A stretch of DNA of 64,000 nt, from IMG/VR virus record IMGVR_UViG_3300031707_002920, positions 1 through 64,000 of that record; one strand, given 5' to 3'. Both the position numbers and the translations under genes were made by a program. The stretch comes from a virus. The notes under the pieces are model-generated. The model was not told the DNA's origin. It did no database searches and saw only the letters and a list, made by a program, of their open reading frames with translations. Of the stretch, positions 8,913 to 63,431 are shown piece after piece (position 1 is the first letter of the stretch; each line of letters opens with the position of its first letter).

Positions 8913-9365
8913 ATGAAATATGCAACTATTGTTCAATCAGAATTTGTAAAAGAAGCTCGTAAATGGAATGAATTGTCTCGAAAAGAGCAACAAGCATATC
9001 TTAAAGCTCATCCAAAATCGAAAAAACGATTAACTGCTGGTCCAAAAATAGGTGATCCTGGTGAAAAACGGCCAAAATATGGACCTGATAGTGTTGAAGC
9101 AGAAAAAGCAAGAGAAAAACACATATCTGAATTGCAATTTGCTGCTAAACTAAAGAAAATTATTTCTGATAGCAAGTCTGATATTGAAAAATTTCAAAAA
9201 ACAGGTGAATTATCAGACGAATTATATGAAAATTTGTTTGACTATTTTACCATGGAAACAAAAGAAATGCCATACGGAACAGCAAAAGCTAGGACGGGCG
9301 ATCCTTATGAATGGATCAGTGATAAATTGAATGAGACTTTAAAAACGAAAGGAAGTATTCAATGA
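8913..9365 (+). CDS. MKH-leader family protein
   Basis: MKYATIVQSEFVKEARKWNELSRKEQQAYLKAHPKSKKRLTAGP. Confidence 0.8.
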   Translation: MKYATIVQSEFVKEARKWNELSRKEQQAYLKAHPKSKKRLTAGPKIGDPGEKRPKYGPDSVEAEKAREKHISELQFAAKLKKIISDSKSDIEKFQKTGELSDELYENLFDYFTMETKEMPYGTAKARTGDPYEWISDKLNETLKTKGSIQ

Positions 9366-9477
9366 ACATTTAGCCGTGATTCAAAATGAGTTCTTGAAAA
9401 TATCGGGTTTCATGGGATTAGGACATTGGAGTGACAGCGATGAAGCTGCTGATTTCTTCAACACTATTGAAAGGTGA
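9362..9477 (+). pseudogene. Frameshifted/truncated MKH-leader family gene
   Basis: ATG-AA-CAT-TTA-GCC-GTG-ATT-CAA-AAT-GAG-TTC: one A missing from ATGAAACAT; shifted frame reads HLAVIQNEFLKISG. Confidence 0.65.
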
Positions 9478-9482
9478 AAGAT

Positions 9483-9771
9483 ATGAAACATCTTACAGTA
9501 ATTCAAACTGAGTTTTTGAAAGAAGCACGCAAGTGGGACGATCTCGATCAAGATCAACAACGCGCTTATCTAAAACGTCATCCAAAAAGTAATCATGGTA
9601 ACTGCTGCTATAATTGTAGCAATCGCAATCAGTCAGAAACCAGCAGCAAAGCAGTCAGTGACAGCTATTTCAAAAGCTGACACTGTCACGACTGTTGTTA
9701 AAGACACTACTAAAGTTGTCAACGACACAACAAAAGTTATTAAGGTCAAAGAAGTAGCTAAAAAGAAGTAA
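9483..9771 (+). pseudogene. MKH-leader N-terminus joined out of frame to a signal-peptide-type gene remnant
   Basis: MKHLTVIQTEF...LKRHPKS, then another frame reads VIMVTAAIIVAIAISQKPAAK...KDTTKVVNDTTK...KKK*. Confidence 0.55.
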
Positions 9772-9867
9772 GTAACATGGTTTATCTTCGCTTTTTCAAT
9801 TGATTATTGTTTTATATTCAGGAATATTTCAAGAAACTTGTTGTATATTATTTAATTGGAGCACGTA

Positions 9868-9993
9868 ATGCAAACCTTACAACTTCACACCACGCTATCA
9901 ATAGAACGTGTAAAGCACGTGGTAATGGGGTTGTCCTATTTATCATACCTTGGAAAAGAAGAAGGTTATGATATATGGACAGGCGGGGTTTGA
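9868..9993 (+). CDS. Leader peptide 1 (41 aa) of the tRNA operon 1 attenuator
   Basis: GGAG RBS; MQTLQLHTTLSIERVKHVVMGLSYLSYLGKEEGYDIWTGGV*; stop overlaps the antiterminator strand. Confidence 0.8.
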   Translation: MQTLQLHTTLSIERVKHVVMGLSYLSYLGKEEGYDIWTGGV

Positions 9994-10063
9994 GTGTATT
10001 AAAAAACAAAAATTAGCATACACAAAAAACCCCGCCGATCTAACCAATCGACGGGGTTTTTTT
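9982..10063 (+). terminator. Attenuator 1: antiterminator plus intrinsic terminator
   Basis: GGCGGGGTTT (9982-9991) complements AAACCCCGCC (10027-10036), the 5' arm of terminator AAAAAACCCCGCCGAT-loop-ATCGACGGGGTTTTTTT. Confidence 0.85.
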
Positions 10064-10081
10064 ATTTTAGGGAGGCTCGCT

Positions 10082-10243
10082 ATGGAAAAACTTGAAGTCT
10101 CAAAGTGCTTCCTTCCTAAAGATGTATTTGATGAATTCATGAACATGGCAAAAGAAGACAAACAAAAATGGGGCCGGAAACCAAAACCAATCACAAAATT
10201 GGTATGGCCAAATGACAAGGAAATTATGGTGGATGTAGCTTAA
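10082..10243 (+). CDS. Small hypothetical protein, first ORF after attenuator 1
   Basis: GGGAGG RBS, MEKLEVSKC...; 3' end overlaps tRNA-His. Confidence 0.5.
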   Translation: MEKLEVSKCFLPKDVFDEFMNMAKEDKQKWGRKPKPITKLVWPNDKEIMVDVA

Positions 10244-10304
10244 CTGGCTAAAGCGCTGGATCGTGACTCCAGAGACTGTGTGGGTTCGAGTCCCATCATT
10301 CACC
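10228..10304 (+). tRNA. tRNA-His(GTG)
   Basis: G-1, acceptor GTGGATG/CATTCAC, anticodon arm CTGGA-TCGTGAC-TCCAG. Confidence 0.9.
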
Positions 10305-10365
10305 CTTAGATAGTTGTATGATTCAATTGACGATGATGATTAATGATCTTTGAAATTAAGTAAAT

Positions 10366-10439
10366 GCCTGCATAACTCAGATGGTCAGAGTACGATACTT
10401 TTAATATCGGAGTCGTCGGTTCAAATCCGACTGCAGGTA
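10366..10439 (+). tRNA. tRNA-Lys(TTT)
   Basis: CGATA-CTTTTAA-TATCG; T-arm GTCGG-TTCAAAT-CCGAC. Confidence 0.92.
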
Positions 10440-10512
10440 CTTACATTCTGATTGCACTTGCAAATGACTTATCTTTTTGTTTGATAGTTCATATCTATCT
10501 AAGGAGGTAGAT

Positions 10513-12261
10513 ATGAATGAATTACAAGAAGTTCAAGAAATTCGCAAGTTGTACAATGAAGGCGCATTTTTAGCGACTTTGCAAGAACGATTTGGTAAAC
10601 TTGTAGTTAAGCATGCATTGGCAGGTCATCGTCAAAGTAAAGGTGAACGTTGGCGATCACTTCGCAAGATGCATCCTGAAACTTTTAAGATGTCAGATGA
10701 AGCTAAACAACGAATTTCAATAGCAAGAAAGAAGTATTTAGACTTACACCCTGAAAAAGTACCATATAGATTAAATCATTCATCAAAGATAAGTTGGCCT
10801 GAAAAAATATTTGAAAGTGCACTTAAACGACATGATATTACAGGTTGGGTAAGAAATTACATGAATGGTCGATATGAATATGATTTTGCTTTTCCAATGT
10901 TGAAAATTGATGTTGAAATTGATGGCAATACACATTCACTAAGTAATGTAAAGAAGATTGATTGTGAGCGTGACAATTGGTCAAAGTCTCAAGGATGGAT
11001 TATATTACGATTTACAGCGAAACATGTACTAAGAGATGTAAATCAATGTATTGAATTGTTGCAAAAACAGATTAGTAATATGACATTAGATGTTAACGAT
11101 GAAATTAATGCGTCATTTTTAATGTTAAGAACAGCTAAAGATCGATATCGACACGCATTGAAAGAACGACGGCAACAACGCAGTGTTGAACGCGCTAAAA
11201 AAATTGAAGAGTTACAGCAAAATAGTATTCAGTTTAATGAAAATAAAAAAATTGCAGGTAATGAATTGTCATTAGAAACCATTTTAGATCGAGTAAATAT
11301 AGCTAAAAATAATGATCAAGAAAAACGAGGATACGTATCTGAGTTATCTGAATTGTGGAAAGTGTCTAGTACACAAGTTCGAAGATTTTTAAAGCAATAC
11401 TGTCCGGAATGCTTAAGATTACGTACTCGTGTTTTTTGTGAACAAGCTAAGTTTATTAAAACTGATGAGGTTGTTAAACAGATCATAAGTGACTATAAAA
11501 ATGGCGATTCTTTAAGTCAAATTTGTAAAAAATATATTGTATTAAAAAAAATTGTTAAGCAGTTATTACTAGATAATCATGTGGAAATAAGAGATAAAAG
11601 ATATTATGCTAAAAGAACACTAGCTGATCGACATCAAAAATATCTAATGTCATATAGTGACAAACTTACTGATATTGTCAAAGATCATGATAATGGTTGT
11701 ACAATTAGAGAACTTAGAAGAAAATACAATATCAGTAGAACGATAATTAAAAAATTGTTGAACTTGTCAGACAGTGATTATAAAAACCAATTACAACAAG
11801 AAAAATTAGATAAACTAGAAGCTAAGATCATACAAAAACAAAAGCTGCAAAATCAAATTAAGCAGCAGCAGCAGCGATTGTTAAAACAGAAAAGAAAACT
11901 AAAACGAAGATTAAGTCCTGAAAATCAACAAAAAATGCAAGATCGAATAAATTGCATACTCAAATCTGAGATAGATTATTCATCTTTTGGATGGGTAAAT
12001 AAAGTTTCAGTTCTTATTGGACTATCACCACAAAAGGTTAATGGATGGATGAAAAAATACATGTCAGATTTTTATGACAGTAATTGTTTCAAAAAAAGAG
12101 ATAGAAAAAATATATTGTTATCTAATGACGTCATTGAACAAATAGTTAGTGATTACAAAAATAGCAAATCATTACGTCAAATTTGCAAAAAATATGACGT
12201 GTCAAAGAATGTTGTTAAACTATTGTTGTTAAGTCGTCACATTGAAATAAGAAGTCGATGA
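10513..12261 (+). CDS. DUF559/Vsr-like putative homing endonuclease with repeated HTH-like modules
   Basis: YEYDFAF..KIDVEIDGNTH..D.ERD....QGW.ILRF; repeated IxxDYKNxxSLxQICKKY motif; AAGGAGG RBS. Confidence 0.8.
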   Translation: MNELQEVQEIRKLYNEGAFLATLQERFGKLVVKHALAGHRQSKGERWRSLRKMHPETFKMSDEAKQRISIARKKYLDLHPEKVPYRLNHSSKISWPEKIFESALKRHDITGWVRNYMNGRYEYDFAFPMLKIDVEIDGNTHSLSNVKKIDCERDNWSKSQGWIILRFTAKHVLRDVNQCIELLQKQISNMTLDVNDEINASFLMLRTAKDRYRHALKERRQQRSVERAKKIEELQQNSIQFNENKKIAGNELSLETILDRVNIAKNNDQEKRGYVSELSELWKVSSTQVRRFLKQYCPECLRLRTRVFCEQAKFIKTDEVVKQIISDYKNGDSLSQICKKYIVLKKIVKQLLLDNHVEIRDKRYYAKRTLADRHQKYLMSYSDKLTDIVKDHDNGCTIRELRRKYNISRTIIKKLLNLSDSDYKNQLQQEKLDKLEAKIIQKQKLQNQIKQQQQRLLKQKRKLKRRLSPENQQKMQDRINCILKSEIDYSSFGWVNKVSVLIGLSPQKVNGWMKKYMSDFYDSNCFKKRDRKNILLSNDVIEQIVSDYKNSKSLRQICKKYDVSKNVVKLLLLSRHIEIRSR

Positions 12262-12367
12262 GTTAAAAAAGAAGCTAGCTGATGCGCGCAAAAAACGTCA
12301 GACAATTAGAGCACGGTTGGAGCGTTCTTTGACATTGATGATGAAGCACATTTGAGAACGTAATTAC

Positions 12368-12451
12368 GCGAGGATGGCGGAATTGGCAGACGCACTGGGC
12401 CTAGAACCCAGCGGAAGAAATTCCTTGCGAGTTCAAGTCTCGCTTCTCGCA
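12368..12451 (+). tRNA. tRNA-Leu(TAG)
   Basis: CTGGG-CCTAGAA-CCCAG, long variable arm. Confidence 0.92.
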
Positions 12452-12641
12452 GTTTATAGCAAGCAGTCATGGCATGATCTGAGACTACCATCTCTGAAAT
12501 CATAGGAGAATGGCAAGACTTGATTGTCAAACTGTTTGCAAAAAGGTCAAACTTAGAACTGGCAACGGTACCAGTTCCCAAGGCACTCGACAGTGTGCCG
12601 GCAGGACTGGTCGTAGGAATGATCAACTGTCAGAATTTCTT

Positions 12642-12724
12642 GCGGATGTGGCGGAACGGCAGACGCACTACTTTGAGGTGGTAGCGAGAGCAATCTCGTG
12701 TAGGTTCAAGTCCTATCATCCGCA
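12642..12724 (+). tRNA. tRNA-Leu(GAG)
   Basis: CTACT-TTGAGGT-GGTAG, long variable arm. Confidence 0.92.
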
Positions 12725-12755
12725 TTAATTGTAAATGATTGTAGAATAGCAATAC

Positions 12756-12829
12756 GGAGTATTAGTCTAGTGGTAAAACCACGGTTTGTCGAACCGTTGT
12801 CAGCAGTTCAATTCTGCTATACTCCGCCA
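12756..12829 (+). tRNA. tRNA-Asp(GTC)
   Basis: ACGGT-TTGTCGA-ACCGT; ends G-CCA. Confidence 0.88.
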
Positions 12830-12836
12830 GATTTTT

Positions 12837-12909
12837 GGGAGCGTCTGCTAATCTGGTAAGCTTCTAGTCTCCAAAACTAGCAATACACGTTCAAATCGTG
12901 TCGCTCCTG
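12837..12909 (+). tRNA. tRNA-Trp(CCA)
   Basis: CTAGT-CTCCAAA-ACTAG. Confidence 0.85.
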
Positions 12910-13016
12910 TAATTTTGAAAACTAAATGAAAGTGTTTGCTTAGTGGCACTACAGATCAATTTTTAACATCTAACAAAGGAGGTTCTCATGATGTAAAACT
13001 TAACAAGGAGTGCATC

Positions 13017-13271
13017 ATGAGCAGATCGTATCGTGAACCGTATTTCACGAGCACAGGTTCAAAGTATCGGACATTTGCGAAACGCTATGCGAACAGGATC
13101 GTGCGAAAGACAGACGATGTCCCTGACGGTAAGGCGTACCGTAAATTGTATTGTTCGTGGAACATTAGCGATTTCAACGTCCGGTGGAATCCAAAGCCAA
13201 GAATCTGGTGGATCAATGGCAAGCAGCAAGTCATTGAACCGACACCGGAGTGGAAAGCAAGAATGAAATGA
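13017..13271 (+). CDS. Small basic hypothetical phage protein
   Basis: AAGGAG RBS; MSRSYREPY...KRYANRIVRK...YRKLYCSWNISD. Confidence 0.65.
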   Translation: MSRSYREPYFTSTGSKYRTFAKRYANRIVRKTDDVPDGKAYRKLYCSWNISDFNVRWNPKPRIWWINGKQQVIEPTPEWKARMK

Positions 13272-13332
13272 GTTTAAAGGAGGTTATAATCAATCGTATA
13301 ATTGCATAAGATAAGTTTCTATAGAAATGAAT

Positions 13333-13633
13333 GCTCGGATGGTGGAATTGGTAGACACAAGGGACTCTGTAAAAGGGTCGTATATCTTGGAAACAAGTAT
13401 ATTGTAAACTGTCAAATTCGGTGGACGGTGTAAAATCTCAACGCCGAGCCAAGCTTTAGGTAACTAAAGAAGGTGTAGAGACTAAACGGCAGTCACCTAA
13501 AAGTTAACAGTTGACTCATGGTGAAGACATAGTCCAGACTACAAACAATGCTTGTTGACGATGAAAATCGTAGTAGTAAGTAAAATCCCTCGGGAGCGAT
13601 CCTATACCGGTTCAAGTCCGGTTCCGAGCACCA
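13333..13633 (+). tRNA. tRNA-Leu(TAA) interrupted by a group I intron
   Basis: Exons 13333-13366 and 13581-13633 join to AGGGA-CTTAAAA-TCCCT; ends ACCA. Confidence 0.92.
13367..13580 (+). ncRNA. Group I self-splicing intron (214 nt, no ORF)
   Basis: P1 GACT|CT...AGGGTC with U-G at the 5' splice site; core AAATTCGGTGGA, GCCGAGCCAAG, GTAGAGACTA, AAGACATAGTCC; terminal G. Confidence 0.9.
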
Positions 13634-13661
13634 TTATGAAAAGAAAATCTTTAATACTATT

Positions 13662-13735
13662 GCCGGATTGGTGTAATTGGTAAACACGCTTATTTCAAAA
13701 GTAAGTCTTTGAGAGTTCAAAACTCTCATCCGGTA
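13662..13735 (+). tRNA. tRNA-Leu(CAA), short variable loop
   Basis: CTTAT-TTCAAAA-GTAAG. Confidence 0.82.
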
Positions 13736-13744
13736 TATGAAAAT

Positions 13745-13826
13745 TGCGGCGTACAGTAGCGGTCTAACTGGGAAGCCTCATAAGCTTCTGGCGCAAGCCT
13801 CATGAGTTCAAATCTCATCGCCGCTA
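13745..13826 (+). tRNA. tRNA-Met(CAT), initiator-like 1:72 mismatch, extra variable arm
   Basis: GAAGC-CTCATAA-GCTTC; TGCGGCG/CGCCGCT. Confidence 0.82.
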
Positions 13827-13832
13827 ATTTAT

Positions 13833-13904
13833 GTGAGTGTAGCCTAGCGGTCAGGCACCTTCCTTCCAAGTAGGTATACGCGGGTTCGATCCCCGTCACT
13901 CACT
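13833..13904 (+). tRNA. tRNA-Gly(TCC)
   Basis: Anticodon loop CTTCCAA; GTGAGTG/CACTCAC. Confidence 0.88.
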
Positions 13905-13907
13905 TAT

Positions 13908-13984
13908 AGTGGCATCATCTAACGGCTTTAGGATGCGCGGTTTTCAACCACGCAATCGGGTTTCGACTACCCGTGCCACTACCA
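13908..13984 (+). tRNA. tRNA-Glu(TTC)
   Basis: Loop TTTTCAA; AGTGGCA/TGCCACT-ACCA. Confidence 0.85.
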
Positions 13985-13993
13985 AATAGAATT

Positions 13994-14077
13994 GGGTCGG
14001 TCGCATAGCGGCAAGTGCACCTGATTGTAGCTCAGGCGTCTTACGACTATTCGTTGGTTCGAGTCCAGCCCGGCCCA
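13994..14077 (+). tRNA. tRNA-Tyr(GTA)
   Basis: CCTGA-TTGTAGC-TCAGG, variable arm. Confidence 0.9.
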
Positions 14078-14179
14078 TTTACAATGTGACTCTCTTAGAG
14101 GGTCTTACACATACCCTAAAAAATTGAGAGAGTTATATTTTCACTTCACAAAATTTGAAGTTTATTTGATAAGTGCTAT

Positions 14180-14249
14180 GGTGAGTTCGGATAATGGTAG
14201 ATCGAGCGCCCGGAAGGGTATGGGAGTTCAAGTTTCTCACTCACCGCCA
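14180..14249 (+). pseudogene. tRNA-Ser-like element lacking an anticodon arm
   Basis: Acceptor GGTGAGT/ACTCACC-G-CCA, D- and T-arms present, only a GCCC-GGAA-GGGT hairpin between them. Confidence 0.65.
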
Positions 14250-14256
14250 AAATTAT

Positions 14257-14331
14257 GCGGCAGTCGCTAAGCGGTTTAGCACATCATTGCCTATGATGTC
14301 TACGCCAGTTCGATCCTGGTCTGCCGCACCA
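14257..14331 (+). tRNA. tRNA-Gly(GCC)
   Basis: CATCA-TTGCCTA-TGATG; ends ACCA. Confidence 0.9.
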
Positions 14332-14512
14332 TTTTTTCAAAGGAGGTATATGAATTATTTACTAACTATTAGAGTGCCTTTTACTGATATTGATGATGTC
14401 ATTGCCAGACAAAAAGCATTAGAAATTTTAGAAAAAGTAAATATTTCTAATGAAAAAGTGGTCAAATTACAAAGACTGCAAGAAAATGCAGAACCTGTCA
14501 AAGTTAATTTGT

Positions 14513-14588
14513 AGGCACTTATTTCAGCGGTAAGAATAGCTGGCTTACGTCCAGCAGGTCGACAGTTCGAGTCTGTCAGTGCCTACCA
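14513..14588 (+). tRNA. tRNA-Val(TAC)
   Basis: GCTGG-CTTACGT-CCAGC; ends ACCA. Confidence 0.92.
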
Positions 14589-14661
14589 TTTTTCAAAGTA
14601 AAAAGCAATAAGATAAATCTATTGATAAAACATGTATAGTATATGTCTATAACAAACTTTC

Positions 14662-14743
14662 AGGAGAGTATCGGTACACTCTTATAAGGTGTATACCCGT
14701 AATTGGTTCATTGAAAATGAGGGTTCAAGTCCCTCCTCTCCTA
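14662..14743 (+). tRNA. Atypical tRNA-Ile(TAT): no D-arm, long variable region
   Basis: AGGAGAG/CTCTCCT, ACACT-CTTATAA-GGTGT, GAGGG-TTCAAGT-CCCTC. Confidence 0.65.
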
Positions 14744-14788
14744 TAATTAAATTAAGATCATGGCAATAATAATTGATTATCACTTTAT

Positions 14789-15143
14789 GATCCTGTGAGC
14801 GAGAAAACCCACGGTTGAAACCGTGGGATGAAAGCGAGCCGTAATATATATTCTAAATGACAGGCTCAGTTCTGAACTCTTCAAGGCTGAAAGTGCCGGT
14901 TGAGTTCCATAAAAAAATGAACTGAATCACCGTCAAAAGCTCCTTGCTTCAGGGCCAGATGTAAAAAGCACCACGGTATCATCCTGGTTTTCTGGAAAAG
15001 CACTCTGATTCGGAGATTCATAAAATTTCGTTTCATACCCAGACTCGGGCTGGAGTCTGTTGAGCGACCAGTGCCCCGCCGCAAGGCGAAAGCACCGGTG
15101 AGGGCTCATAGAAGCCCACGACTTTAGTCGTGGGAGCAGTCAC
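14789..15143 (+). mobile_element. ORF-less IS605-family derivative (PATE/MITE-like), copy A
   Basis: Inserted after TTAT; left hairpin CCCACGGTT-GA-AACCGTGGG; right part closely matches 66-168, ends TCAC. Confidence 0.88.
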
Positions 15144-15259
15144 TATATTTACAATACCATTCAGTCTTCGATTTGTCTTTGATAATTGAATTTAGAATAT
15201 GTGAAAGAGTTAGATGATGATGCTATTCTTGAAAGATTAAATATTGATGATGAACTAAA

Positions 15260-15345
15260 GGAAGAGTCGCTCAATGGTAGAGCATCTGATTTGAGATCAG
15301 ACGCCTCAAAAGGGTGTGCGGGTTCAAGTCCTGCCTCTTCCGCCA
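15260..15345 (+). tRNA. tRNA-Ser(TGA)
   Basis: TCTGA-TTTGAGA-TCAGA, long variable arm, G-CCA. Confidence 0.92.
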
Positions 15346-15616
15346 ATCTTGGGCCTGTGGCTTAGTTGGTTAATGAATGGTAATGTTTAAACAAAGGACT
15401 AGATATGAGTTTTGGATTGAAGAAGTCTTTTGGCAGGTTCGTTAAAAAACTACCGGATTTTATTGTAATAAAATATGATGACTATTTTAACGTTATTTAT
15501 AAAGATGGGCGTCAAAGCAATGAATATGAAACAGACAGATATATTTTTGGCAAAAGTGATGAAGGATTTTATATGATAAATAAGAAAGCAATAGTTTATG
15601 GAATAAGAGTATAAGT

Positions 15617-15665
15617 GGAGAGTTAGCATAACTGGTAATGCAGTCGATTTGAGGTCGACCGCTCA
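15617..15665 (+). pseudogene. 5' half of a second tRNA-Ser(TGA), truncated
   Basis: GGAGAGTTAGCATAACTGGTAATGCA-GTCGA-TTTGAGG-TCGAC, no T-arm. Confidence 0.55.
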
Positions 15666-15910
15666 TGTTTGATAAGACATTTGAACTTTTTGATCGAACC
15701 ATGCAAATGCTTGACAGAGAAATGAAATGTCTGTTTATGCGCCCTACGAAGTCGAATACGAGGGTGAGGGTTAAGATCAAGGCTGGATCTAAAGTTTATG
15801 TGAATGGTGTGATGGTTGAATTAGTTAATGATGCTATTGTTTTAACATCTGAACTTGACAGATTGATGAATACGAAAAAATAAATGAATTTAAAAAAGGT
15901 GGATTGAAAA

Positions 15911-16252
15911 ATGTTAGATGAGTTTTTGAAAACTGATAATACAGTAAAAGTCGCATTATATAAAATTGGTCGAGTGCTAGGATTTTTTTCGGAAAATTCT
16001 TTTAAGCAATACGAATATCTGTTAAATGACGAGTCAGATAACGATGTTCGAAAGTTGTTATCGTCTATTTTAGCCAGTTTGACTCACTGTGGTGCAATTG
16101 TATCGACTGACGAAAATCGAGTGAAGTGGAATGAAAATTTTAAAATCGATTCATATTTAGAGATGATGCAGCAGAAAAAAGCTTCACGAGCTAGACAAGC
16201 ACAAGACAGAGCAGCTATTAAGAATATATTGCGAAAATTTGCAACTGAATGA
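15911..16252 (+). CDS. Hypothetical protein
   Basis: ORF with AGGTGG RBS. Confidence 0.6.
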   Translation: MLDEFLKTDNTVKVALYKIGRVLGFFSENSFKQYEYLLNDESDNDVRKLLSSILASLTHCGAIVSTDENRVKWNENFKIDSYLEMMQQKKASRARQAQDRAAIKNILRKFATE

Positions 16253-16572
16253 CGAGTAATAAACAATCCTGACGGATTAGTGCTCGAAATTAAATGCGTC
16301 GATTTAGATTCATTGTTTATTGTGACGATTGTAAAGAAAAATAATAAATGGGAGCACGTATTTAAGTGTGGACATGAAATCGTGTGGAGATGCAATAGTA
16401 GAATAGGTGATCAGACAGTTTTTGAGGCTGATTCACAGCTAATTAAGAACGACAGTACACAAAATTTGTGTTATTTATACGATGATGGCACAATTAGTAT
16501 AGATCGAGATTCTTAAGTGGAACAGAAATAGCATAAGAATGATGTCTCTTACTCAAAACGCTAACAGAAATT

Positions 16573-16656
16573 GCGGGAATGGTGGAATTGGTAAACACGT
16601 CGGTTTTAGAAGTCGATGGGAGAAATCCTTTGCAGGTTCAAGTCCTGTTTCCCGCA
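16573..16656 (+). tRNA. tRNA-Leu(TAG), second copy
   Basis: Loop TTTAGAA, long variable arm. Confidence 0.9.
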
Positions 16657-16669
16657 CTAGAGATTAAAT

Positions 16670-17194
16670 ATGCTATGTCCAATATGTAATTCTGATACTT
16701 TGGTCATTAATTCGAGGGTAGTAAATGCTTGTTGTAATGTCAGGCGTCGAAGAAAATGTATAAAGTGCGATTATCGATTCAATACCATAGAACGAGTAAG
16801 AATAGATATGAATGAAAAGTTAAAACAAGTTATCGTGATGCGATCAGACCTTAATATGAGAAAAGGCAAAATGATTGTACAGGGCGCGCATGCATCAATG
16901 AAAATATTTTTTGATAGAGTCGAATCAATTAATAAGAAGATGTGTTTGAATATTACGCAGGCAATGATGGAGTGGATGACTGGTATTTTTACTAAAATTT
17001 GTGTGAAGGTCGACTCGGAACGAGAGTTACTTGAGATTAGAGAGAAAGCTATTTCTTTAGGATTACCAGTAGCTTTGATTGAAGACAACGGGTTGACTGA
17101 ATTTAAAGGAGTAGTAACAAAAACTTGTCTTGCAATAGGGCCTGATGATTCGGAAAAAATTGATCAAGTTACAGGTCATTTACAATTATTGTAA
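16670..17194 (+). CDS. pth2: NrdR-type Zn ribbon in frame with peptidyl-tRNA hydrolase 2
   Basis: MLCPIC..VINSR...VRRRRKCIKC.YRFNTIE; KQVIVMRSDLNMRKGK...QGAHA, DNGLTEF, AIGP, VTGHLQLL. Confidence 0.9.
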   Translation: MLCPICNSDTLVINSRVVNACCNVRRRRKCIKCDYRFNTIERVRIDMNEKLKQVIVMRSDLNMRKGKMIVQGAHASMKIFFDRVESINKKMCLNITQAMMEWMTGIFTKICVKVDSERELLEIREKAISLGLPVALIEDNGLTEFKGVVTKTCLAIGPDDSEKIDQVTGHLQLL

Positions 17195-21186: not shown

Positions 21187-21282
21187 ATGCATTTATTTAT
21201 ACGCACATCTACATGGCTTTATAATACTGCCAGTGATATGCGTTCAAATTTCTGTGCAACAATTAGAATGGAAATAACATAA
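21187..21282 (+). CDS. Leader peptide 2 (31 aa) of the tRNA operon 2 attenuator
   Basis: AAAGGA RBS; MHLFIRTSTWLYNTASDMRSNFCATIRMEIT*. Confidence 0.78.
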   Translation: MHLFIRTSTWLYNTASDMRSNFCATIRMEIT

Positions 21283-21284
21283 TT

Positions 21285-21344
21285 GGCGAGGCTTAAAATA
21301 ATATTAAAAAAGCCTCGCTGATCAAAAGTCAACGAGGCTTTTTT
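21285..21344 (+). terminator. Attenuator 2: antiterminator plus intrinsic terminator
   Basis: GGCGAGGCTT (21285-21294) complements AAGCCTCGCT of terminator AAAAAAGCCTCGCTGA-loop-TCAACGAGGCTTTTTT. Confidence 0.85.
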
Positions 21345-21356
21345 AATGCCGAAATT

Positions 21357-25890: not shown

Positions 25891-25956
25891 ATGACGATTC
25901 GTAGGCAGCCGCAACAGCAACGTCGCCCTCAACCAGGACGGTGTATGCTCAAGTGA
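25891..25956 (+). CDS. Leader peptide 3 (21 aa, Arg/Gln/Pro-rich) of the tRNA operon 3 attenuator
   Basis: AAAGGT RBS; MTIRRQPQQQRRPQPGRCMLK*. Confidence 0.85.
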   Translation: MTIRRQPQQQRRPQPGRCMLK

Positions 25957-26016
25957 AGCTGTCGAATTAACGTTATATTTATTAAAGGCTTCACTTGAAA
26001 AAGTGGAGCCTTTTTT
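25951..26016 (+). terminator. Attenuator 3: antiterminator plus intrinsic terminator
   Basis: AAGTGAAGCT (contains the leader stop) complements GGCTTCACTT of terminator AAAGGCTTCACTT-GAAA-AAGTGGAGCCTTTTTT. Confidence 0.88.
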
Positions 26017-30795: not shown

Positions 30796-31207
30796 GGGGG
30801 TGTAAGGTTTCGACAGATTGGGTGAAGTAACAGTTGCATGTAGAGGAAATCACTGGTTGGCCTCTTAAATCATCCGGTGAACTTTAACTGCCAACACAGG
30901 TGCAGTTCTGGGTGCAAAATTCGCAACACAGTTTGCTGTTCTTTGCGGATTGACCTCCCAGGTCAGCGTTGCTTAATTTAAAAGCAACAGAGTTTTAGTG
31001 AGAGCCACGGTAGCTAAAACTTCAAGTAGTGTGGATAGGACAACCGAATCGCAGTAGAGAAGGGGACCGAAATGACGTCTGCGCCTCTTACTTGTGAAGC
31101 TTGCTGATTCTTAGTAATAAGATAAGAGGAAGTTACAGAATCAGATAAACATGTAGTAACTGTTATAGAGCACATTCTGGACAGGGGTTCAATTCCCCTC
31201 ACCTCCA
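30796..31207 (+). ncRNA. ssrA: tmRNA
   Basis: GGGGGTG...TTCGAC 5' end, GGGG-TTCAATT-CCCC-TCACCTCCA 3' end with G3-U70; tag ORF 30890-30976 after TTAACT. Confidence 0.92.
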
Positions 31208-40405: not shown

Positions 40406-40453
40406 GTAGAGCAGCTATATCAATCTACGCAAAGCAGGTTGATTATAAAAGTT

Positions 40454-57453: not shown

Positions 57454-59727
57454 ATGGACAAAGAAGAAATTAGACAGTTATTATATAAAACAGGCGATAA
57501 AAAAGATTTCGTCCATCTTCACTTACATAGTGATTTTTCGCTTAAAGATGGTATTGGTAAACCCAACCAATACGCTAAAAAAGCGCTTGAGATCGGAATG
57601 TCTGCATTAGCAATAACAGATCATGGTAGTATTGGCGCACATCCGTCATTTTTTATGTACTGTAGGTCGGTCAATTTGAAGCCGATTGTCGGTGTCGAAA
57701 TGTACATGCAAAATAGACGGTCAGAAGTAGAAGAATATGACAGGACGATTGATGAATTGAATAAAAAAATCAAGATTTTAAAACAATTTATCAAACGTAA
57801 AAGCGCGAGCAGACAAGTGTTTGAATCGTATGCTGATATCATTAGACAAATACTTGATATGCCAAGTGCTGAATTTGAAGATATTAATACATTAGATTTT
57901 TCAGAAGTTAAAGAAAAAATTAATGAGATAATTAAACATCGGCAGATCGAAGAAAAAGAGTATTCTAAAAATAGGGATATACTTAAGAAGAACCAGCATA
58001 TTATATTGATCGCCAAAAATGAAATTGGTCGAAAAAACATTACAAAAATCGTAAGCGATGCTGCCAGAAATGGATTTTATTATAAACCGCGTACTGCATT
58101 AGATTTTATAGTCGAAAATAAAAGCGGTATAATCGTTACCACTGCGTGTCTCGCAGGTATAATTAATAACGAGATGTTACAGTTTGAAGACGAAAAGGCA
58201 GCAAGGACAATGGGATTAAATGTAGCTAAAAAGTATAAAGACATTTTCGGCGATGATTTTTATATTGAAATAATGATGATTGATATCGACAAGCAACGAT
58301 TAGTAAATAAATTGTTATTAGAAATTGCAAAAGAATTAGATATAAAGTTTATCGTGACGAACGACGTCCACTACATTGACAAAGACGGCGCAAAAGCTCA
58401 AGAGATATCTTTAATGCTCGGCTCTAAAGATGAAGGCGAGCAGGTTACGATGAAAGATAAGAAGAGATTGAATGCCATGAGAGAGATATTAGATGCTATA
58501 GGAGAAAATAATTCGCCTGAACACGTTAGGGCAGTATATAACGATTTTATTGAGCTCGATCGGTTTAAAGAATTCAAGTCATCGAATAAAGAAACTAGTA
58601 TCGTTTTTGATGAAATAATGGATATTGTTGTTGGTAAGAAAAAATTTAAAAAAGTGTGGGAGTTTTCTACTAAAGATTTTTGGTTTAAAGATCGACATCA
58701 GATGATTGATGCTTATATAGATCAAGGTCATCATGAATATATTGAGATTGATGATTTTAGACAAGCGTTAGATAATACAATTAAAGTAGCAAATAAAGTC
58801 GAGACATGGGATTGGGATACTACGGAGAAGTTACCAAAAATAGATACTGGTAATTTAAGTAGTTACGATTTTTTAGTTTCACTAACTAGAGAAGGTTGGT
58901 CACGTAAAGCTGAAGAGCACTGGTATGATGAAAGTAGTGAATATGCTAAACGAGTTAAATATGAATTGAGCGTAATTAGACGGACGCAGATGGCAGATTA
59001 TTTCCTCATTGTTGCAGATTATATTAAGTATGCTAAGTCCCATAATGTGCTGGTAGGCGGAGCAAGAGGGTGTTTCGTTCCAGACTCTTTAATTAGAATG
59101 GCAGATAATACAGTAAAGTCAATTCAAGATGTGCAAGTTGGAGATAATGTAAAAAATCTTTTTTTGCACGATGTTGAAGTTTGTAATAAATTCATTTATG
59201 AAATCGAGGAAAATATTGTAGAATTAAAATTTGATGACAAGATCATTAAATGCACATGTGATCATAAGTTTTTAACTAAAAATAGAGGTTGGGTAAAAGC
59301 AATAAATTTAACTGACACTGATGAAGTAGTATTATTTGATTTAGGATTTAAAAATTTAAGTGAATTTCAACGAGAAATTGTTCCAATTTCAAAAACAATC
59401 AAATTAACATCTAAAAAAATAATTCCTTATAAAGGTAAAGTGTTTGATTTAGCTGTTAAATCAGATGATAAGTCTTATAATGTGCAAGATATTGTTGTTC
59501 ATAATTCTTCGTGCGGGAGCCTTGTCTGTTATTTACTTGATATCACGAACATTGATCCTTTGAAGCATGATTTGTTGTTTGAAAGATTTTTGAGTATGTC
59601 TAGGAGTATGGCTATATATGATTTAACAGTGTCTACATTTAAAGAAATAGATGACAAAGTTGAGTTATTTTTAGGCGATGACTTTGAAGATTGGTCGAAT
59701 AATAGACTTGTGAGGTTAAACGAATGA
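57454..59727 (+). CDS. dnaE: DNA polymerase III alpha, N-terminal part (PHP + start of palm), one intein
   Basis: HLHLHSDFSLKDG, AITDHG, TNDVHY, GARG|intein|SSCGSLV, LLFERFL. Confidence 0.93.
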   Translation: MDKEEIRQLLYKTGDKKDFVHLHLHSDFSLKDGIGKPNQYAKKALEIGMSALAITDHGSIGAHPSFFMYCRSVNLKPIVGVEMYMQNRRSEVEEYDRTIDELNKKIKILKQFIKRKSASRQVFESYADIIRQILDMPSAEFEDINTLDFSEVKEKINEIIKHRQIEEKEYSKNRDILKKNQHIILIAKNEIGRKNITKIVSDAARNGFYYKPRTALDFIVENKSGIIVTTACLAGIINNEMLQFEDEKAARTMGLNVAKKYKDIFGDDFYIEIMMIDIDKQRLVNKLLLEIAKELDIKFIVTNDVHYIDKDGAKAQEISLMLGSKDEGEQVTMKDKKRLNAMREILDAIGENNSPEHVRAVYNDFIELDRFKEFKSSNKETSIVFDEIMDIVVGKKKFKKVWEFSTKDFWFKDRHQMIDAYIDQGHHEYIEIDDFRQALDNTIKVANKVETWDWDTTEKLPKIDTGNLSSYDFLVSLTREGWSRKAEEHWYDESSEYAKRVKYELSVIRRTQMADYFLIVADYIKYAKSHNVLVGGARGCFVPDSLIRMADNTVKSIQDVQVGDNVKNLFLHDVEVCNKFIYEIEENIVELKFDDKIIKCTCDHKFLTKNRGWVKAINLTDTDEVVLFDLGFKNLSEFQREIVPISKTIKLTSKKIIPYKGKVFDLAVKSDDKSYNVQDIVVHNSSCGSLVCYLLDITNIDPLKHDLLFERFLSMSRSMAIYDLTVSTFKEIDDKVELFLGDDFEDWSNNRLVRLNE
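59071..59505 (+). mobile_element. Mini-intein (145 aa)
   Basis: CFVPDSLI...TCDHKF...VFDL...VVHN|S. Confidence 0.9.
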
Positions 59728-59900
59728 AATTTCGTTTTTTAAAAGATGTCACAGTTTATAGTTGCATAATAATATAGATTTTAGTAAGTTATCATCATTT
59801 TTGAATAATTAAATTATGAACATGCGATGAGCCACAATTCACAAGGTTTTAACTCTCGATGGTTATGCTCACTAAAAATAATTGTTGACAATAAACTGGA

Positions 59901-62900
59901 GTGTTATACATTAAGATTATGAATAAAGCCATAACAAAATTAGATTATATACAATATCTTTGTGAGCGAAAGTTAAAAAATTTATCATTAGAAAACGATG
60001 AATACATTCAACAACTTGAAAGAGAACTTACAAATATTGACGTGCAAGATTTGCAAGATTATGTGATTAATTTGATTAAAAACAAGACAAAAATTGACAG
60101 ACATGGTTCGTTAATCTATTATCTTATTGGCGTGTCTGATATCGATCCAATTAAAAATAAAATACCTATTAAAGTTAAAAAACAGTCTTCGTTTCCCGAT
60201 ATTGACTCAGATTTTAGCATGAATGAAAGGGAAGAAGTCGTAAAGTATTTCATTAATAAATATGGAAGTGATCACGTCGCGCCGATTGGATCGTATGGTC
60301 AAATGAAAATGAAAATGGTTATGAGAGATATTGCTAGGATTTTTGATGTAGATTTAAATGACACGAATGAAGTTGTAAAAAATCTTGGCGAAGATGTTGA
60401 TGCAATGACAGAAGAAGAATTTGATGTAGCAATTGCTATCGAACCAGGCGAAGACGGTTTCAGGAACGATTTATATGAATTGAGAAAATATCTCGAACGA
60501 CATCCTGAAGTACGAGAAATATTATTCAAACTTAAAGGTCAATTGCGACATCTTACCAAACATCCTGCCGGCGTGGTTGCGACTCCTACCAAAATTGATG
60601 AGACGATTCCATTAATGAGGCACAAAGACGAACTTATAACTAGTTGGGTTGACGGCATTACTCGAAAAGATTTACAATCTTCGGGCTTCATAAAATTCGA
60701 TATTTTGGGACTTAAGACATTGACGATTATTAAAGAAATTCTTGAACTTATTAGGAATCGTAAGTCGTATAATAAAAATGCAGACTTTGATCTTCAGTCA
60801 ATTGATAGAGGTCAAATAACGTCATTACTTTATGAAGAATTTTCAAGCAAATTACCGTTAGACGGTAATGACATTATTTATGAAAGATTCAGAAATACAG
60901 ATACTAATGGCATTTTTCAATTTGAATGTATTGCCGGCGATTCATGGATCGGTAATTATAGAATAAAAGAGTTATACAAAGACTTTTTGAGAGGACCGGT
61001 ACATAAAATTGGATGTGTAGACATTAAGAAAAAAAGAAAAATTAGACAAATTGTTTACGCGATGAAGAAACAAGAAAGAGAAGTATATCGAGTGGTTGTC
61101 GATTATGATAATAGATGCATTGAAACTTCTATTTTGCACGAATATTATACTCCGAAAAGTTGGAAAAAGCTGCAAGATTTGAAAATCGGTGATAAGATAC
61201 TTATCGACACTGAAAGATGTAGGACTCAATATTATTGTCCTGTCTCACAAACAGTGATGGATGTGTTAGGCATTAAAACTGGTTGTGAAGAATGTATTAA
61301 AAACGGCAAGAGAATCTGTAAAACGCAAGTATTGAAAAAATTTAGACAAGTTAAAATTCGATATAAATTCGTTAAAATAAAGCAAATTGATTTTGTGGGC
61401 CTGAAAGAGGTTTATGATATTGGATTTTCAAACAAGCAACATCGCAATTACGTCGCAAATGGGTTCGTAGTTCATAATAGTAATTTAATGAAATCATTAC
61501 TCAGAGAGATTAAGCCGACTACATTTAATGATATTACTTCTACTACTGCGTTAGGTCGACCGGGACCTTTAGACATGGGCATGCATCATGAATATGCTCA
61601 GAGAAAAAATGGGAAAAAGTTTGATTTTGGATCGCCATTAATTGAAAAATGTTTAAAAGACAGTTTTGGCATATTAACATATCAAGAAGACGTAATGAGA
61701 CTATGCAACATCGTCGCAGGATTTCCATTAGATTTAACTGATACAGTTAGAAAAAATTTGATGAAATCTATCAGAGATAAAGATGCGAAAGATAAAGAAG
61801 CAAAACAGAGAAAAGAAATTCATGAAAAATTCATCAGAGGCTGTGTTGAGCGAGGCCTTAAAGAGCAAATTGCTGAATCGTGGTGGCAAAGTTGTGTATC
61901 ATTTGCTCGCTACGGGTTCAATAAGTGTTTAACTGGCGATACTGTTCTTACAAGATGTAACGGCAATCAACATACAAAAAGAAATATTACAATTAGAGAA
62001 CTATATTCAGCCTATAGATCAGACACAAAGGTCGGACAAAAGTATAGAAGATCTGGTTATCCAATAATACATTCAATGATTGATGGTAGAATTAAGATTG
62101 AAAAAATAAAAGATATAGTTTACAATGGTAGAAAGCCAGTATTTAGAATCACAACAGATAATGGGTTCAGTATTAAAGCTACTGACATTCATAGATTTTT
62201 AAGTGAGTTTGGTTGGAAGATGGTTAAAGATTTCAACATTAGTGATTTGATAGCAATTACATTACAAGAATATGATGACTATAAACGAATAGGTTATTAT
62301 GATATGGATCGAACAAAACGATATGAAAAAGGGTTTGAAGTAACTTATGCAAAAATTGTCAGTATTGAACTTGTTGGTATTGAAGATGTTTATGATGTTG
62401 AAATGTATGGCGATGAACACAATTTTGTAGCAAATGGATTTATAAGTCATAATTCTCACGCTGTAGCGTACACTGTTCTCAGTTATCAAATGATGTGGTT
62501 TAAAGTGTATTATCCGTTAGAATTTTATGTAGTGTTGTTATCAAATTCAATTAAAGAGAAGTTCGTCGATTATTTTTCCGAGATAATGGGTAAGGGCATC
62601 AACATTGTTCCGGCAAATATTAATAAATCAAAAGAAGGATTTACAATACACGGTGAAGATAATAGCATAATGTTTGGATTGGGATATGTCATAGGAGTAG
62701 GGCCGGCAATTATTAATGTAATCACTCAGACACAACCGTTTGATTCATTTATAGATTTTTGGCATAAAACAGAGAGGATTAAAAAAATTGGTAAATCTGC
62801 TATTGTCGCACTAATAAGTGCTCATGCATTTGATGACTTTGGAGCTCAAAATGAGATGTTAGAAAAGTATTATAAAGTCATTAGACAAGATACAAAATGG

Positions 62901-63431
62901 GAACGTGATATTGATTATAATGACCGTAGATATGAACACGAGCAATTTGTTGAAGCGTATAGTTTAGATTGGCGAACAAAATTATCAGATAAACAAAAGG
63001 CAGAAGTAACTAAGCTAAATGCTAAATTGTTGACAAAATTAGTGCAACCTAAAGCTAACATGAAAAAAACGATATGGGGCATTATTACTGGTATAATCGA
63101 AAAAACTAGTAAAAACGATAATAATTATTTTTATGTGATGTTGACAGATTCAAAATTTAATATTGTAAAAATCAGAATTCCTTGTTATAATAAAAGATGT
63201 AAATACGCATTTATTCTTAATCAAGAGTCAGGAAAATATAGGAAAGTACCAGTTCAAGACGTTATTAAAATGGATAATATTTTAGTAGGAGATGCCGAAA
63301 CAAGCGAATATATGGATAGAATATTTATTGATTTGTTTGACATTTGTTGCGTGGGTAACGTATATGAGAAAACGATAGAACAAATAGAAAAATTAGCAAA
63401 ATATGACAAGATAGCTGCAGAAGAAGAATAA
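59901..63431 (+). CDS. dnaE: DNA polymerase III alpha, C-terminal part, two inteins
   Basis: PDIDSDF, HPAGVV, KFDILGL, GIFQFE, RPGP, YQEDVM, YGFNK|..|SHAVAY. Confidence 0.94.
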   Translation: MLYIKIMNKAITKLDYIQYLCERKLKNLSLENDEYIQQLERELTNIDVQDLQDYVINLIKNKTKIDRHGSLIYYLIGVSDIDPIKNKIPIKVKKQSSFPDIDSDFSMNEREEVVKYFINKYGSDHVAPIGSYGQMKMKMVMRDIARIFDVDLNDTNEVVKNLGEDVDAMTEEEFDVAIAIEPGEDGFRNDLYELRKYLERHPEVREILFKLKGQLRHLTKHPAGVVATPTKIDETIPLMRHKDELITSWVDGITRKDLQSSGFIKFDILGLKTLTIIKEILELIRNRKSYNKNADFDLQSIDRGQITSLLYEEFSSKLPLDGNDIIYERFRNTDTNGIFQFECIAGDSWIGNYRIKELYKDFLRGPVHKIGCVDIKKKRKIRQIVYAMKKQEREVYRVVVDYDNRCIETSILHEYYTPKSWKKLQDLKIGDKILIDTERCRTQYYCPVSQTVMDVLGIKTGCEECIKNGKRICKTQVLKKFRQVKIRYKFVKIKQIDFVGLKEVYDIGFSNKQHRNYVANGFVVHNSNLMKSLLREIKPTTFNDITSTTALGRPGPLDMGMHHEYAQRKNGKKFDFGSPLIEKCLKDSFGILTYQEDVMRLCNIVAGFPLDLTDTVRKNLMKSIRDKDAKDKEAKQRKEIHEKFIRGCVERGLKEQIAESWWQSCVSFARYGFNKCLTGDTVLTRCNGNQHTKRNITIRELYSAYRSDTKVGQKYRRSGYPIIHSMIDGRIKIEKIKDIVYNGRKPVFRITTDNGFSIKATDIHRFLSEFGWKMVKDFNISDLIAITLQEYDDYKRIGYYDMDRTKRYEKGFEVTYAKIVSIELVGIEDVYDVEMYGDEHNFVANGFISHNSHAVAYTVLSYQMMWFKVYYPLEFYVVLLSNSIKEKFVDYFSEIMGKGINIVPANINKSKEGFTIHGEDNSIMFGLGYVIGVGPAIINVITQTQPFDSFIDFWHKTERIKKIGKSAIVALISAHAFDDFGAQNEMLEKYYKVIRQDTKWERDIDYNDRRYEHEQFVEAYSLDWRTKLSDKQKAEVTKLNAKLLTKLVQPKANMKKTIWGIITGIIEKTSKNDNNYFYVMLTDSKFNIVKIRIPCYNKRCKYAFILNQESGKYRKVPVQDVIKMDNILVGDAETSEYMDRIFIDLFDICCVGNVYEKTIEQIEKLAKYDKIAAEEE
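60927..61478 (+). mobile_element. Mini-intein (184 aa)
   Basis: FE|CIAGDS...NYVANGFVVHN|S. Confidence 0.9.
61926..62453 (+). mobile_element. Mini-intein (176 aa)
   Basis: NK|CLTGDT...ATDIHRF...HNFVANGFISHN|S. Confidence 0.92.

Follow-up and report, generated by a model that had tools for sequence, protein, structure and literature searches.

Why does a 41-codon open reading frame (leader 1) end inside one arm of an RNA hairpin, ahead of an array of 17 tRNA genes carried by a virus? The reason why phages have tRNA genes is an old question and, to our knowledge, the control of their expression is largely unknown. Here, the evidence tips towards leader 1 being a ribosome-mediated transcription attenuator of the trp type, located between a promoter-like block and the first tRNA block (block 1), that is multivalent and makes tRNA transcription depend on demand.

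The window analysed covers the first 64 kb of a virus record of IMG/VR that is 85.9 kb long, is about 43% complete and comes from a sediment metagenome. It has a G+C content of around 35%, carries all its long ORFs on the + strand and contains 28 tRNA genes plus one tmRNA according to ARAGORN. No close isolate phage was found: a megablast of positions 9000-11000 against isolate phage records gave 0 matches, and tblastn with the proteins neighbouring leader 1 gave remote matches only. Two uncultured IMG/VR relatives, G001 and G002, were reached through a search with ORF2, the gene that follows the leader, and a more distant 330-kb phage, G003, through the terminator pattern. The comparison set thus consists of four related lineages, the window itself being G000. 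A scan of metagenomes yielded near-identical copies and one variant of G001, L049, that differs at two codons of leader 1, and nothing further. The leader 1 alignment used as query returned only G001 and G002, both already in hand; the upstream 150-aa protein led to 31 distant loci, with leader 1 in none of them (0/31); and pattern scans with segments 2 and 3 or with hairpin B (Table 1) gave chance matches only, without tRNAs nearby. One locus retrieved with the terminator pattern, L068, proved to be unrelated and was discarded.

Table 1. Elements of the leader 1 unit and of the genes that follow it, in window coordinates.
Feature	Position	Strand	Basis and remarks
Promoter-like block (CTTCG..N..TGATTATT)	9786-9813	+	Conserved ahead of leader 1 in 4/4 lineages; consensus CTWCG-N9-12-TGAYTA
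Shine-Dalgarno GGAG	9858-9861	+	Sequence; 6 nt ahead of ATG; ortholog equivalents purine-rich, at the same place
Leader 1 ORF, 41 codons + TGA	9868-9993	+	Coding 9868-9990, stop TGA 9991-9993
Segment 1, CAAACCTT, codons 2-4	9871-9878	+	RNAalifold consensus; pairs with segment 2; putative anti-antiterminator
Hairpin A, within leader ORF	9879-9934	+	RNAalifold; three pairs changed on both sides
Hairpin B, within leader ORF	about 9933-9980	+	RNAalifold; base GUCC/GGAC holds the orphan TCC codon
Segment 2, GGCGGGGTTTGA	9982-9993	+	Antiterminator 5′ arm; includes stop codon
Antiterminator inner extension GTGTAT (9994-9999) / ATACAC (10018-10023) and loop	9994-10023	+	Fold
Segment 3, AAACCCCGCC	10027-10036	+	Arm common to antiterminator and terminator
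Intrinsic terminator, CCCCGCCGAT / ATCGACGGGG, then U7	10030-10063	+	Segment 4 is 10047-10056
ORF2, 53 aa	10070-10243	+	Strong RBS GGGAGG, ATG at 10082; no known family; overlaps tRNA-His start
tRNA block 1	10229-16657	+	17 tRNA genes, 16 anticodon species, homing-endonuclease ORF, group I intron, one tRNA pseudogene

All four lineages keep the promoter-like block, the Shine-Dalgarno sequence, the ATG, the leader ORF, a stop codon inside segment 2, the antiterminator, the terminator and a tRNA array that begins at tRNA-His or slightly before. In the window, the leader 1 peptide is MQTLQLHTTLSIERVKHVVMGLSYLSYLGKEEGYDIWTGGV and contains no A, C, F, N or P. The ORFs of the relatives have 43, 43, 44 and 42 codons; all the indels are of whole codons, including those in helix loops, and the ATG, the Shine-Dalgarno-like purines and the frame are kept throughout. 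The peptides of G001 and G002 are 73-83% identical to that of the window and the G003 peptide about 51%, this last value being derived from an alignment with wrong ORF coordinates (the true G003 ORF is 2401-2526, 42 codons). Radical replacements between lineages are frequent (Y/K, G/E, I/S, K/G, E/Y), which makes it less likely that the peptide folds and has a function, and PHROGs has no family for leader 1, for ORF2 or for the upstream small ORFs. The promoter-like block occurs five times in the 86-kb record (9786, 21147, 25771, 40425 and 41428), always on the + strand, when 0.86 copies are expected, and stands upstream of this leader and of the two others described below; we regard it as a putative promoter.

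Behind the terminator, the first gene is ORF2, which is found in G001 and G002 and is missing from G003. The tRNA genes of block 1 serve 12 amino acids, and their number agrees with the 17 proposed by an earlier sequence-only reading of this locus: 15 genes detected by ARAGORN, an intron-split tRNA-Leu(UAA) and an atypical tRNA-Ile(UAU) at 14662-14743. A group I intron (Rfam RF00028, 13357-13557, 63 bits) splits the anticodon loop of the tRNA-Leu(UAA) gene (13333-13632), and it occurs likewise in G001 (L064:545-755) and, on the minus strand, in G002 (L065:10177-10395). Within the block, an insertion between tRNA-Lys and tRNA-Leu consists of a 594-aa ORF (10477-12261) that combines several HTH domains with an endonuclease-like domain (DUF559) and probably encodes a homing endonuclease. 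After ORF2, G001 (L033:6185-6275) and G002 (L034:6169-6259) carry a tRNA of 91 nt whose variable arm is long and whose Lys anticodon is UUU in the former and CUU in the latter; it has no counterpart in the window.

Does the coding content of leader 1 reflect the tRNAs encoded behind it? Codons were compared with block 1 by standard wobble, excluding the initiator, against a background of codon and amino-acid frequencies taken from 81 ORFs of this genome; in its proteome, 66% of the residues belong to the 12 block-1 amino acids. A recount agreed with the sequence-only reading in that 26 of the last 27 residues of the leader belong to these 12 amino acids, the exception being Thr (suffix-scan-corrected p ~3-5e-4). 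Over the whole ORF, 31/40 codons have a cognate tRNA in block 1 (expected 0.54; p ~0.002) and every one of its 16 anticodon species has a cognate codon (16/16; p about 4-6e-4), among them, as had been pointed out, the four Leu anticodons, both Gly anticodons and Ile-UAU. Taken jointly, the cognate count and the cover have p < 1e-5, with random codons and with real 40-codon windows alike, and the match of the same leader to block 2 or block 3 is not significant (p > 0.7). The sampling of the whole block-1 set is repeated in the relatives, with cover of 16/18 anticodon species in G001, 17/18 in L049, 14/15 in G002 and 20/22 in G003 (p ~3e-4), and it is significant in the two most divergent lineages. 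In G003 the cognate fraction is 26/41 codons (p 0.13), and its leader 1 also covers 10/11 block-2 anticodons (p 0.02-0.04).

The lack of A, C, F, N and P codons, to which the sequence-only reading had given weight and which it had proposed to look for in orthologous leaders, is true of the window and holds in part beyond it. Codons for C, F and N are absent (0) from all four leader 1 versions, and the matching tRNAs were not found in the phage regions examined. On the other hand, leader 1 has three Ala codons and one Pro in G001, and four Ala, one Pro and two Arg in G003, some of these Ala, Pro and extra Arg codons lying inside the part of the leader regarded as sensing; such tRNAs are missing from block 1. 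Codons of this kind in orthologs were what the sequence-only reading had named as speaking against it, and its own test thus turns out partly to its disadvantage. Gln, Thr and Arg codons are present in every version. Because of the Ala, Pro and extra Arg codons of the orthologs, the leader can be said to cover block 1 but not to be restricted to it and, judging from the versions compared, the conserved property is the cover of the block and not the exclusion of other codons. Gene and codon vary together in one case: the window has neither tRNA-Ser(CGA) nor TCG, whereas G001, G002 and G003 have the tRNA and one TCG. No such co-variation was seen for Ser-GGA/TCC, Glu-CUC/GAG or Leu-CAG/CTG, tRNA-Ser(GGA) being found in G003 only.

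The TCC codon of the leader had been linked tentatively to a Ser-like gene at 14180 that might once have served it. This has to be abandoned: 14172-14256 is a pseudogene of tRNA-Ser(CGA), in which a 16-nt deletion took the anticodon arm, its orthologs are intact in G001, G002 and G003, and it would read TCG instead of TCC. The conservation of TCC, which no tRNA serves in the window, G001 or G002, is instead explained by its location in the GUCC/GGAC base of hairpin B. Nearly every codon of leader 1 lies also within an RNA helix, so that the codon composition is co-determined by structure, a constraint ignored by the random-codon null used above.

Two further units made of a leader, an antiterminator and a terminator are present in the window, at 21187-21346 before block 2 and at 25891-26016 before block 3. 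The 13 R/Q/P codons of leader 3 (25891-25956, MTIRRQPQQQRRPQPGRCMLK) cover 8/8 of the Pro/Gln/Arg tRNAs located behind it (p < 1e-5), and the ortholog in G003 is diverged, has a run of 10 R/P/Q codons and shows compensated stems. Leader 2 is almost fully diverged between the window and G001/G002 except for GCR ACA ATT AGA, kept in 4/4 lineages and followed by ATG in three of them and by AAC in G003; GCR ACA ATT AGA ATG is an exact match to the five block-2 tRNAs of the window, G001 and G002. Block 2 of G003 has six extra species, and its leader 2 covers 11/11 (p ~1e-3; joint 3e-5). None of the off-diagonal comparisons between leaders and blocks of the window is significant; leaders 2 and 3, like leader 1, match their own blocks only.

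It may be argued that leader 1 is a translation-status attenuator of a generic kind, that is, a switch read by ribosomes that reports their overall speed or availability, in which the codon match arises incidentally from the diversity of a 41-codon ORF whose sequence is moulded by helices. Codons foreign to the block (Gln, Thr, Arg, Ala, Pro) are tolerated and variable, the cognate fraction of G003 is not significant, codon runs are missing, most codons are part of helix A, helix B, segment 1 or segment 2, and the co-variation of tRNAs and codons is mixed, all of which would be expected from such a switch. It accounts less well for the recurrence of full or near-full cover in lineages with around 51% peptide identity by the alignment mentioned above (p 3-6e-4 each), for the clear tuning of leaders 2 and 3, in the same genomes, to their own blocks and not to others, and for the avoidance, in the four leader 1 versions, of C, F and N codons, those without an encoded tRNA in the regions examined. 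We therefore consider this explanation unlikely, though worth retaining, and a multivalent sensor of block-1 tRNAs preferable.

The predicted terminator (-18.7 kcal/mol, z -6.2) competes with an antiterminator in which GGCGGGGTTT (9982-9991) pairs with AAACCCCGCC (10027-10036) (fold -29.2 kcal/mol, z -3.35). The antiterminator and its GTGTAT/ATACAC extension fold as the sequence-only reading had described, and the relatives have a different inner hairpin in place of that extension; the attenuator architecture is conserved in the four lineages, with covariation in both helices. The final codons of the leader, GGC GGG GTT TGA, make up GGCGGGGTTT, and the TGA lies within segment 2 in 4/4 lineages. 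Besides these two helices, the RNAalifold consensus of five sequences contains a helix, gone unnoticed in the sequence-only reading, between 9871-9878 (CAAACCTT) and 9985-9992 (GGGGTTTG). This predicted 1:2 helix completes a four-segment switch of the trp type. When the nascent RNA is cut before segment 3, the 1:2 helix is part of the minimum-energy fold in the window, G002 and G003 (3/4 lineages); its base changes are one-sided only, with 0 double compensations. The pairing of segment 1 with segment 2 provides the reason why ATGCAAAC is invariant. For the full transcript, the state combining the 1:2 helix and the terminator and the state with the antiterminator (and 1:4 pairing) are only 0.3-2.2 kcal/mol apart in the four lineages (terminator/antiterminator energies of -58.8/-58.5, -71.4/-73.6, -77.6/-79.1 and -69.6/-70.6).

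The conservation just described, including that of ATGCAAAC and of the TCC codon, is in large part accounted for by helices, and one could think of a switch made of RNA only, whose four segments sense a factor such as a protein, a small molecule or uncharged tRNA, and whose open frame follows incidentally from the conservation of structure. This would leave without explanation that the ATG, the Shine-Dalgarno-like purines and the frame are kept with indels that are all of whole codons even in helix loops, that the stop codon is always inside segment 2 and that the codon content of leaders 2 and 3 makes sense only if they are translated. An Rfam scan matched no leader family (Trp_leader, His_leader, Leu_leader, Thr_leader) and no T-box or riboswitch model, the nearest result being a sub-threshold rli38 match at 9989-10064 (33.6 bits versus a gathering score of 49). 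We regard a switch without translation as very improbable. The device has the structural traits of leader-peptide attenuators (a ribosome-binding site and ORF, a terminator, exclusive 2:3 versus 3:4 pairing, a predicted 1:2 helix, the position of the stop codon and the enrichment in regulatory codons) but fits no Rfam leader family and is not a T-box.

The block-2 attenuator (21187-21346) is a paralog of the leader 1 unit, and this allows the comparison of both pairings across units. Between the leader 1 and leader 2 units of three genomes, two positions have changed in concert across all three arms, G-C-G to A-U-A and U-A-U to C-G-C, and a third terminator pair has changed in one sequence only. 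Across both sets of units, pairing reaches 96.6% in the antiterminator, where 2 pairs have changed on both sides, and 100% in the terminator, where 3 have done so, as compared with 20-56% in slid controls. Seen in the alignment, these concerted changes show selection on both alternative pairings; since the covariation is essentially one split between leader 1 and leader 2 units, it counts as few events. That leader 1 is an ordinary small protein gene with its own terminator, and that the upstream sequence complementary to the terminator arm plays no part in regulation, is scarcely credible: the peptide is conserved with a hydrophobic core (LSYLSYL) and terminators end many phage genes, but the three-way covariation preserves the antiterminator as well as the terminator pairing, radical replacements are tolerated, no family matches and the stop-in-arm geometry recurs at three tRNA blocks in four genomes.

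How would the trp-type attenuator operate? Once transcription starts at the putative promoter, three situations can be envisaged. i) If no ribosome is present, segments 1 and 2 would pair first, the 3:4 terminator would follow and transcription would stop at 10063. ii) An initiating ribosome would cover segment 1 and melt the 1:2 helix; if it lags or stalls at a hungry codon, up to around codon 34, segment 2 would be free as segment 3 emerges, the stronger 2:3 helix would form and RNA polymerase would read through to ORF2 and the 17 tRNA genes, possibly also to genes beyond. iii) A ribosome that reaches the UGA in time would mask segment 2, and the 3:4 helix would terminate transcription. Hairpin B, which ends a few bases ahead of segment 2, may be a pause hairpin that synchronises the polymerase with the ribosome, as the 1:2 hairpin does in trp. 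Given that there is a leader codon for every type of block-1 tRNA, these tRNAs are probably made only when ribosomes slow down. Since none of the 16 anticodon species lacks a cognate codon in the leader, a shortage of any of them should raise read-through, so that leader 1 would behave as an OR-gate, as the sequence-only reading had suggested. On the other hand, the codons for each block-1 tRNA are few (1-4) and scattered instead of forming runs like those of his or leu, which makes sensitivity to a single tRNA doubtful. The overall effect would be a multivalent negative feedback of the phage on its own tRNA supply, exerted by one of three units that divide the tRNA set of the phage. Internal promoters might also exist within the 6.4 kb of block 1.

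Leader-peptide attenuation is well known in amino-acid operons, of which trpL, hisL, leuL and pheL are examples, together with the multivalent thrL and ilvGMEDA leaders of enterobacteria. Leader 1 shares with them a short translated leader with regulatory codons, exclusive 1:2 plus 3:4 versus 2:3 pairing, an intrinsic terminator and a stop codon placed so that a ribosome that finishes translation would mask segment 2; as in the thr and ilv leaders, more than one amino acid would be sensed. It differs from them in several respects. The regulated genes are phage tRNAs and not biosynthetic enzymes, and the signal would be tRNA supply; 16 anticodon species (12 amino acids) are represented through scattered single codons instead of runs; segment 1 coincides with codons 2-4 and is separated from segment 2 by two hairpins; and leader 1 has no sequence match to the Rfam leader families. 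In E. coli, pheST, with its pheM leader, is an example in which leader-peptide attenuation driven by the availability of charged tRNA controls phenylalanyl-tRNA synthetase. That system and leader 1 have in common that a component of the translation machinery is the target, but pheST is a host gene that responds to one amino acid and its product is a synthetase rather than a tRNA. The proposed choice between terminator and antiterminator according to tRNA status also recalls the T-box riboswitches, which differ in that they bind uncharged tRNA directly without translation, while leader 1 has a conserved ORF and matches no T-box model. In the literature, we found no published account of attenuation controlling tRNA genes, in phages or otherwise. 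The nearest published case is the trn operon of Anabaena, a 26-tRNA array that is silent until translational stress and is controlled by the repressor TrcR (PMC8421152, PMC10272220). Like that operon, block 1 would be an accessory tRNA array that stays silent until translation is impaired, although the Anabaena operon is cellular and relies on a protein repressor, and the 2021 paper does not mention an attenuator, a leader or a terminator.

The presence of three paralogous attenuators with one type of promoter, each written in the codons of its own block, raises the possibility of a distributed sensor of the tRNA pool, in which each block would be switched on only when its own tRNAs become limiting and leader 1 would be the broad, 16-anticodon channel. 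We see the arguments on this wider scheme as evenly balanced. Phage tRNAs have been linked to escape from tRNA-cleaving host defences (PMC10264068, PMC11555353, PMC12409363), and the shortage sensed could stem from such defences or from the shut-off of the host induced by the phage. If leader 1 is an attenuator written in the codons of the tRNAs behind it, phage tRNAs would be made on demand, the classical logic of amino-acid-operon attenuation would serve also to sense the tRNA pool itself, and many tRNA species would be integrated by one short ORF. The 300-bp element may then provide a search image for annotating the tRNA arrays of large phages.

Several other elements of these genomes deserve mention. 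Immediately after block 1, a PTH2 peptidyl-tRNA hydrolase is fused to an NrdR-like zinc ribbon (16670-17194), and a phage tmRNA is encoded at 30796-31207; tmRNA and PTH2 represent ribosome-rescue functions near the tRNA arrays. In G001 and G003, ARAGORN reported tRNAs whose anticodons, cttg and cttt, have four bases (loci L064:12236-12385, L070:19695-19768 and L070:3686-3760, including a suppressor), and the suppressor tRNA of G003 has the anticodon UUA. The copies of the promoter-like block at 40425 and 41428 are identical and head a cassette-like ORF array. Finally, at 57454-63431, a DnaE-type polymerase is split across two ORFs, with intein splicing domains in each of them.
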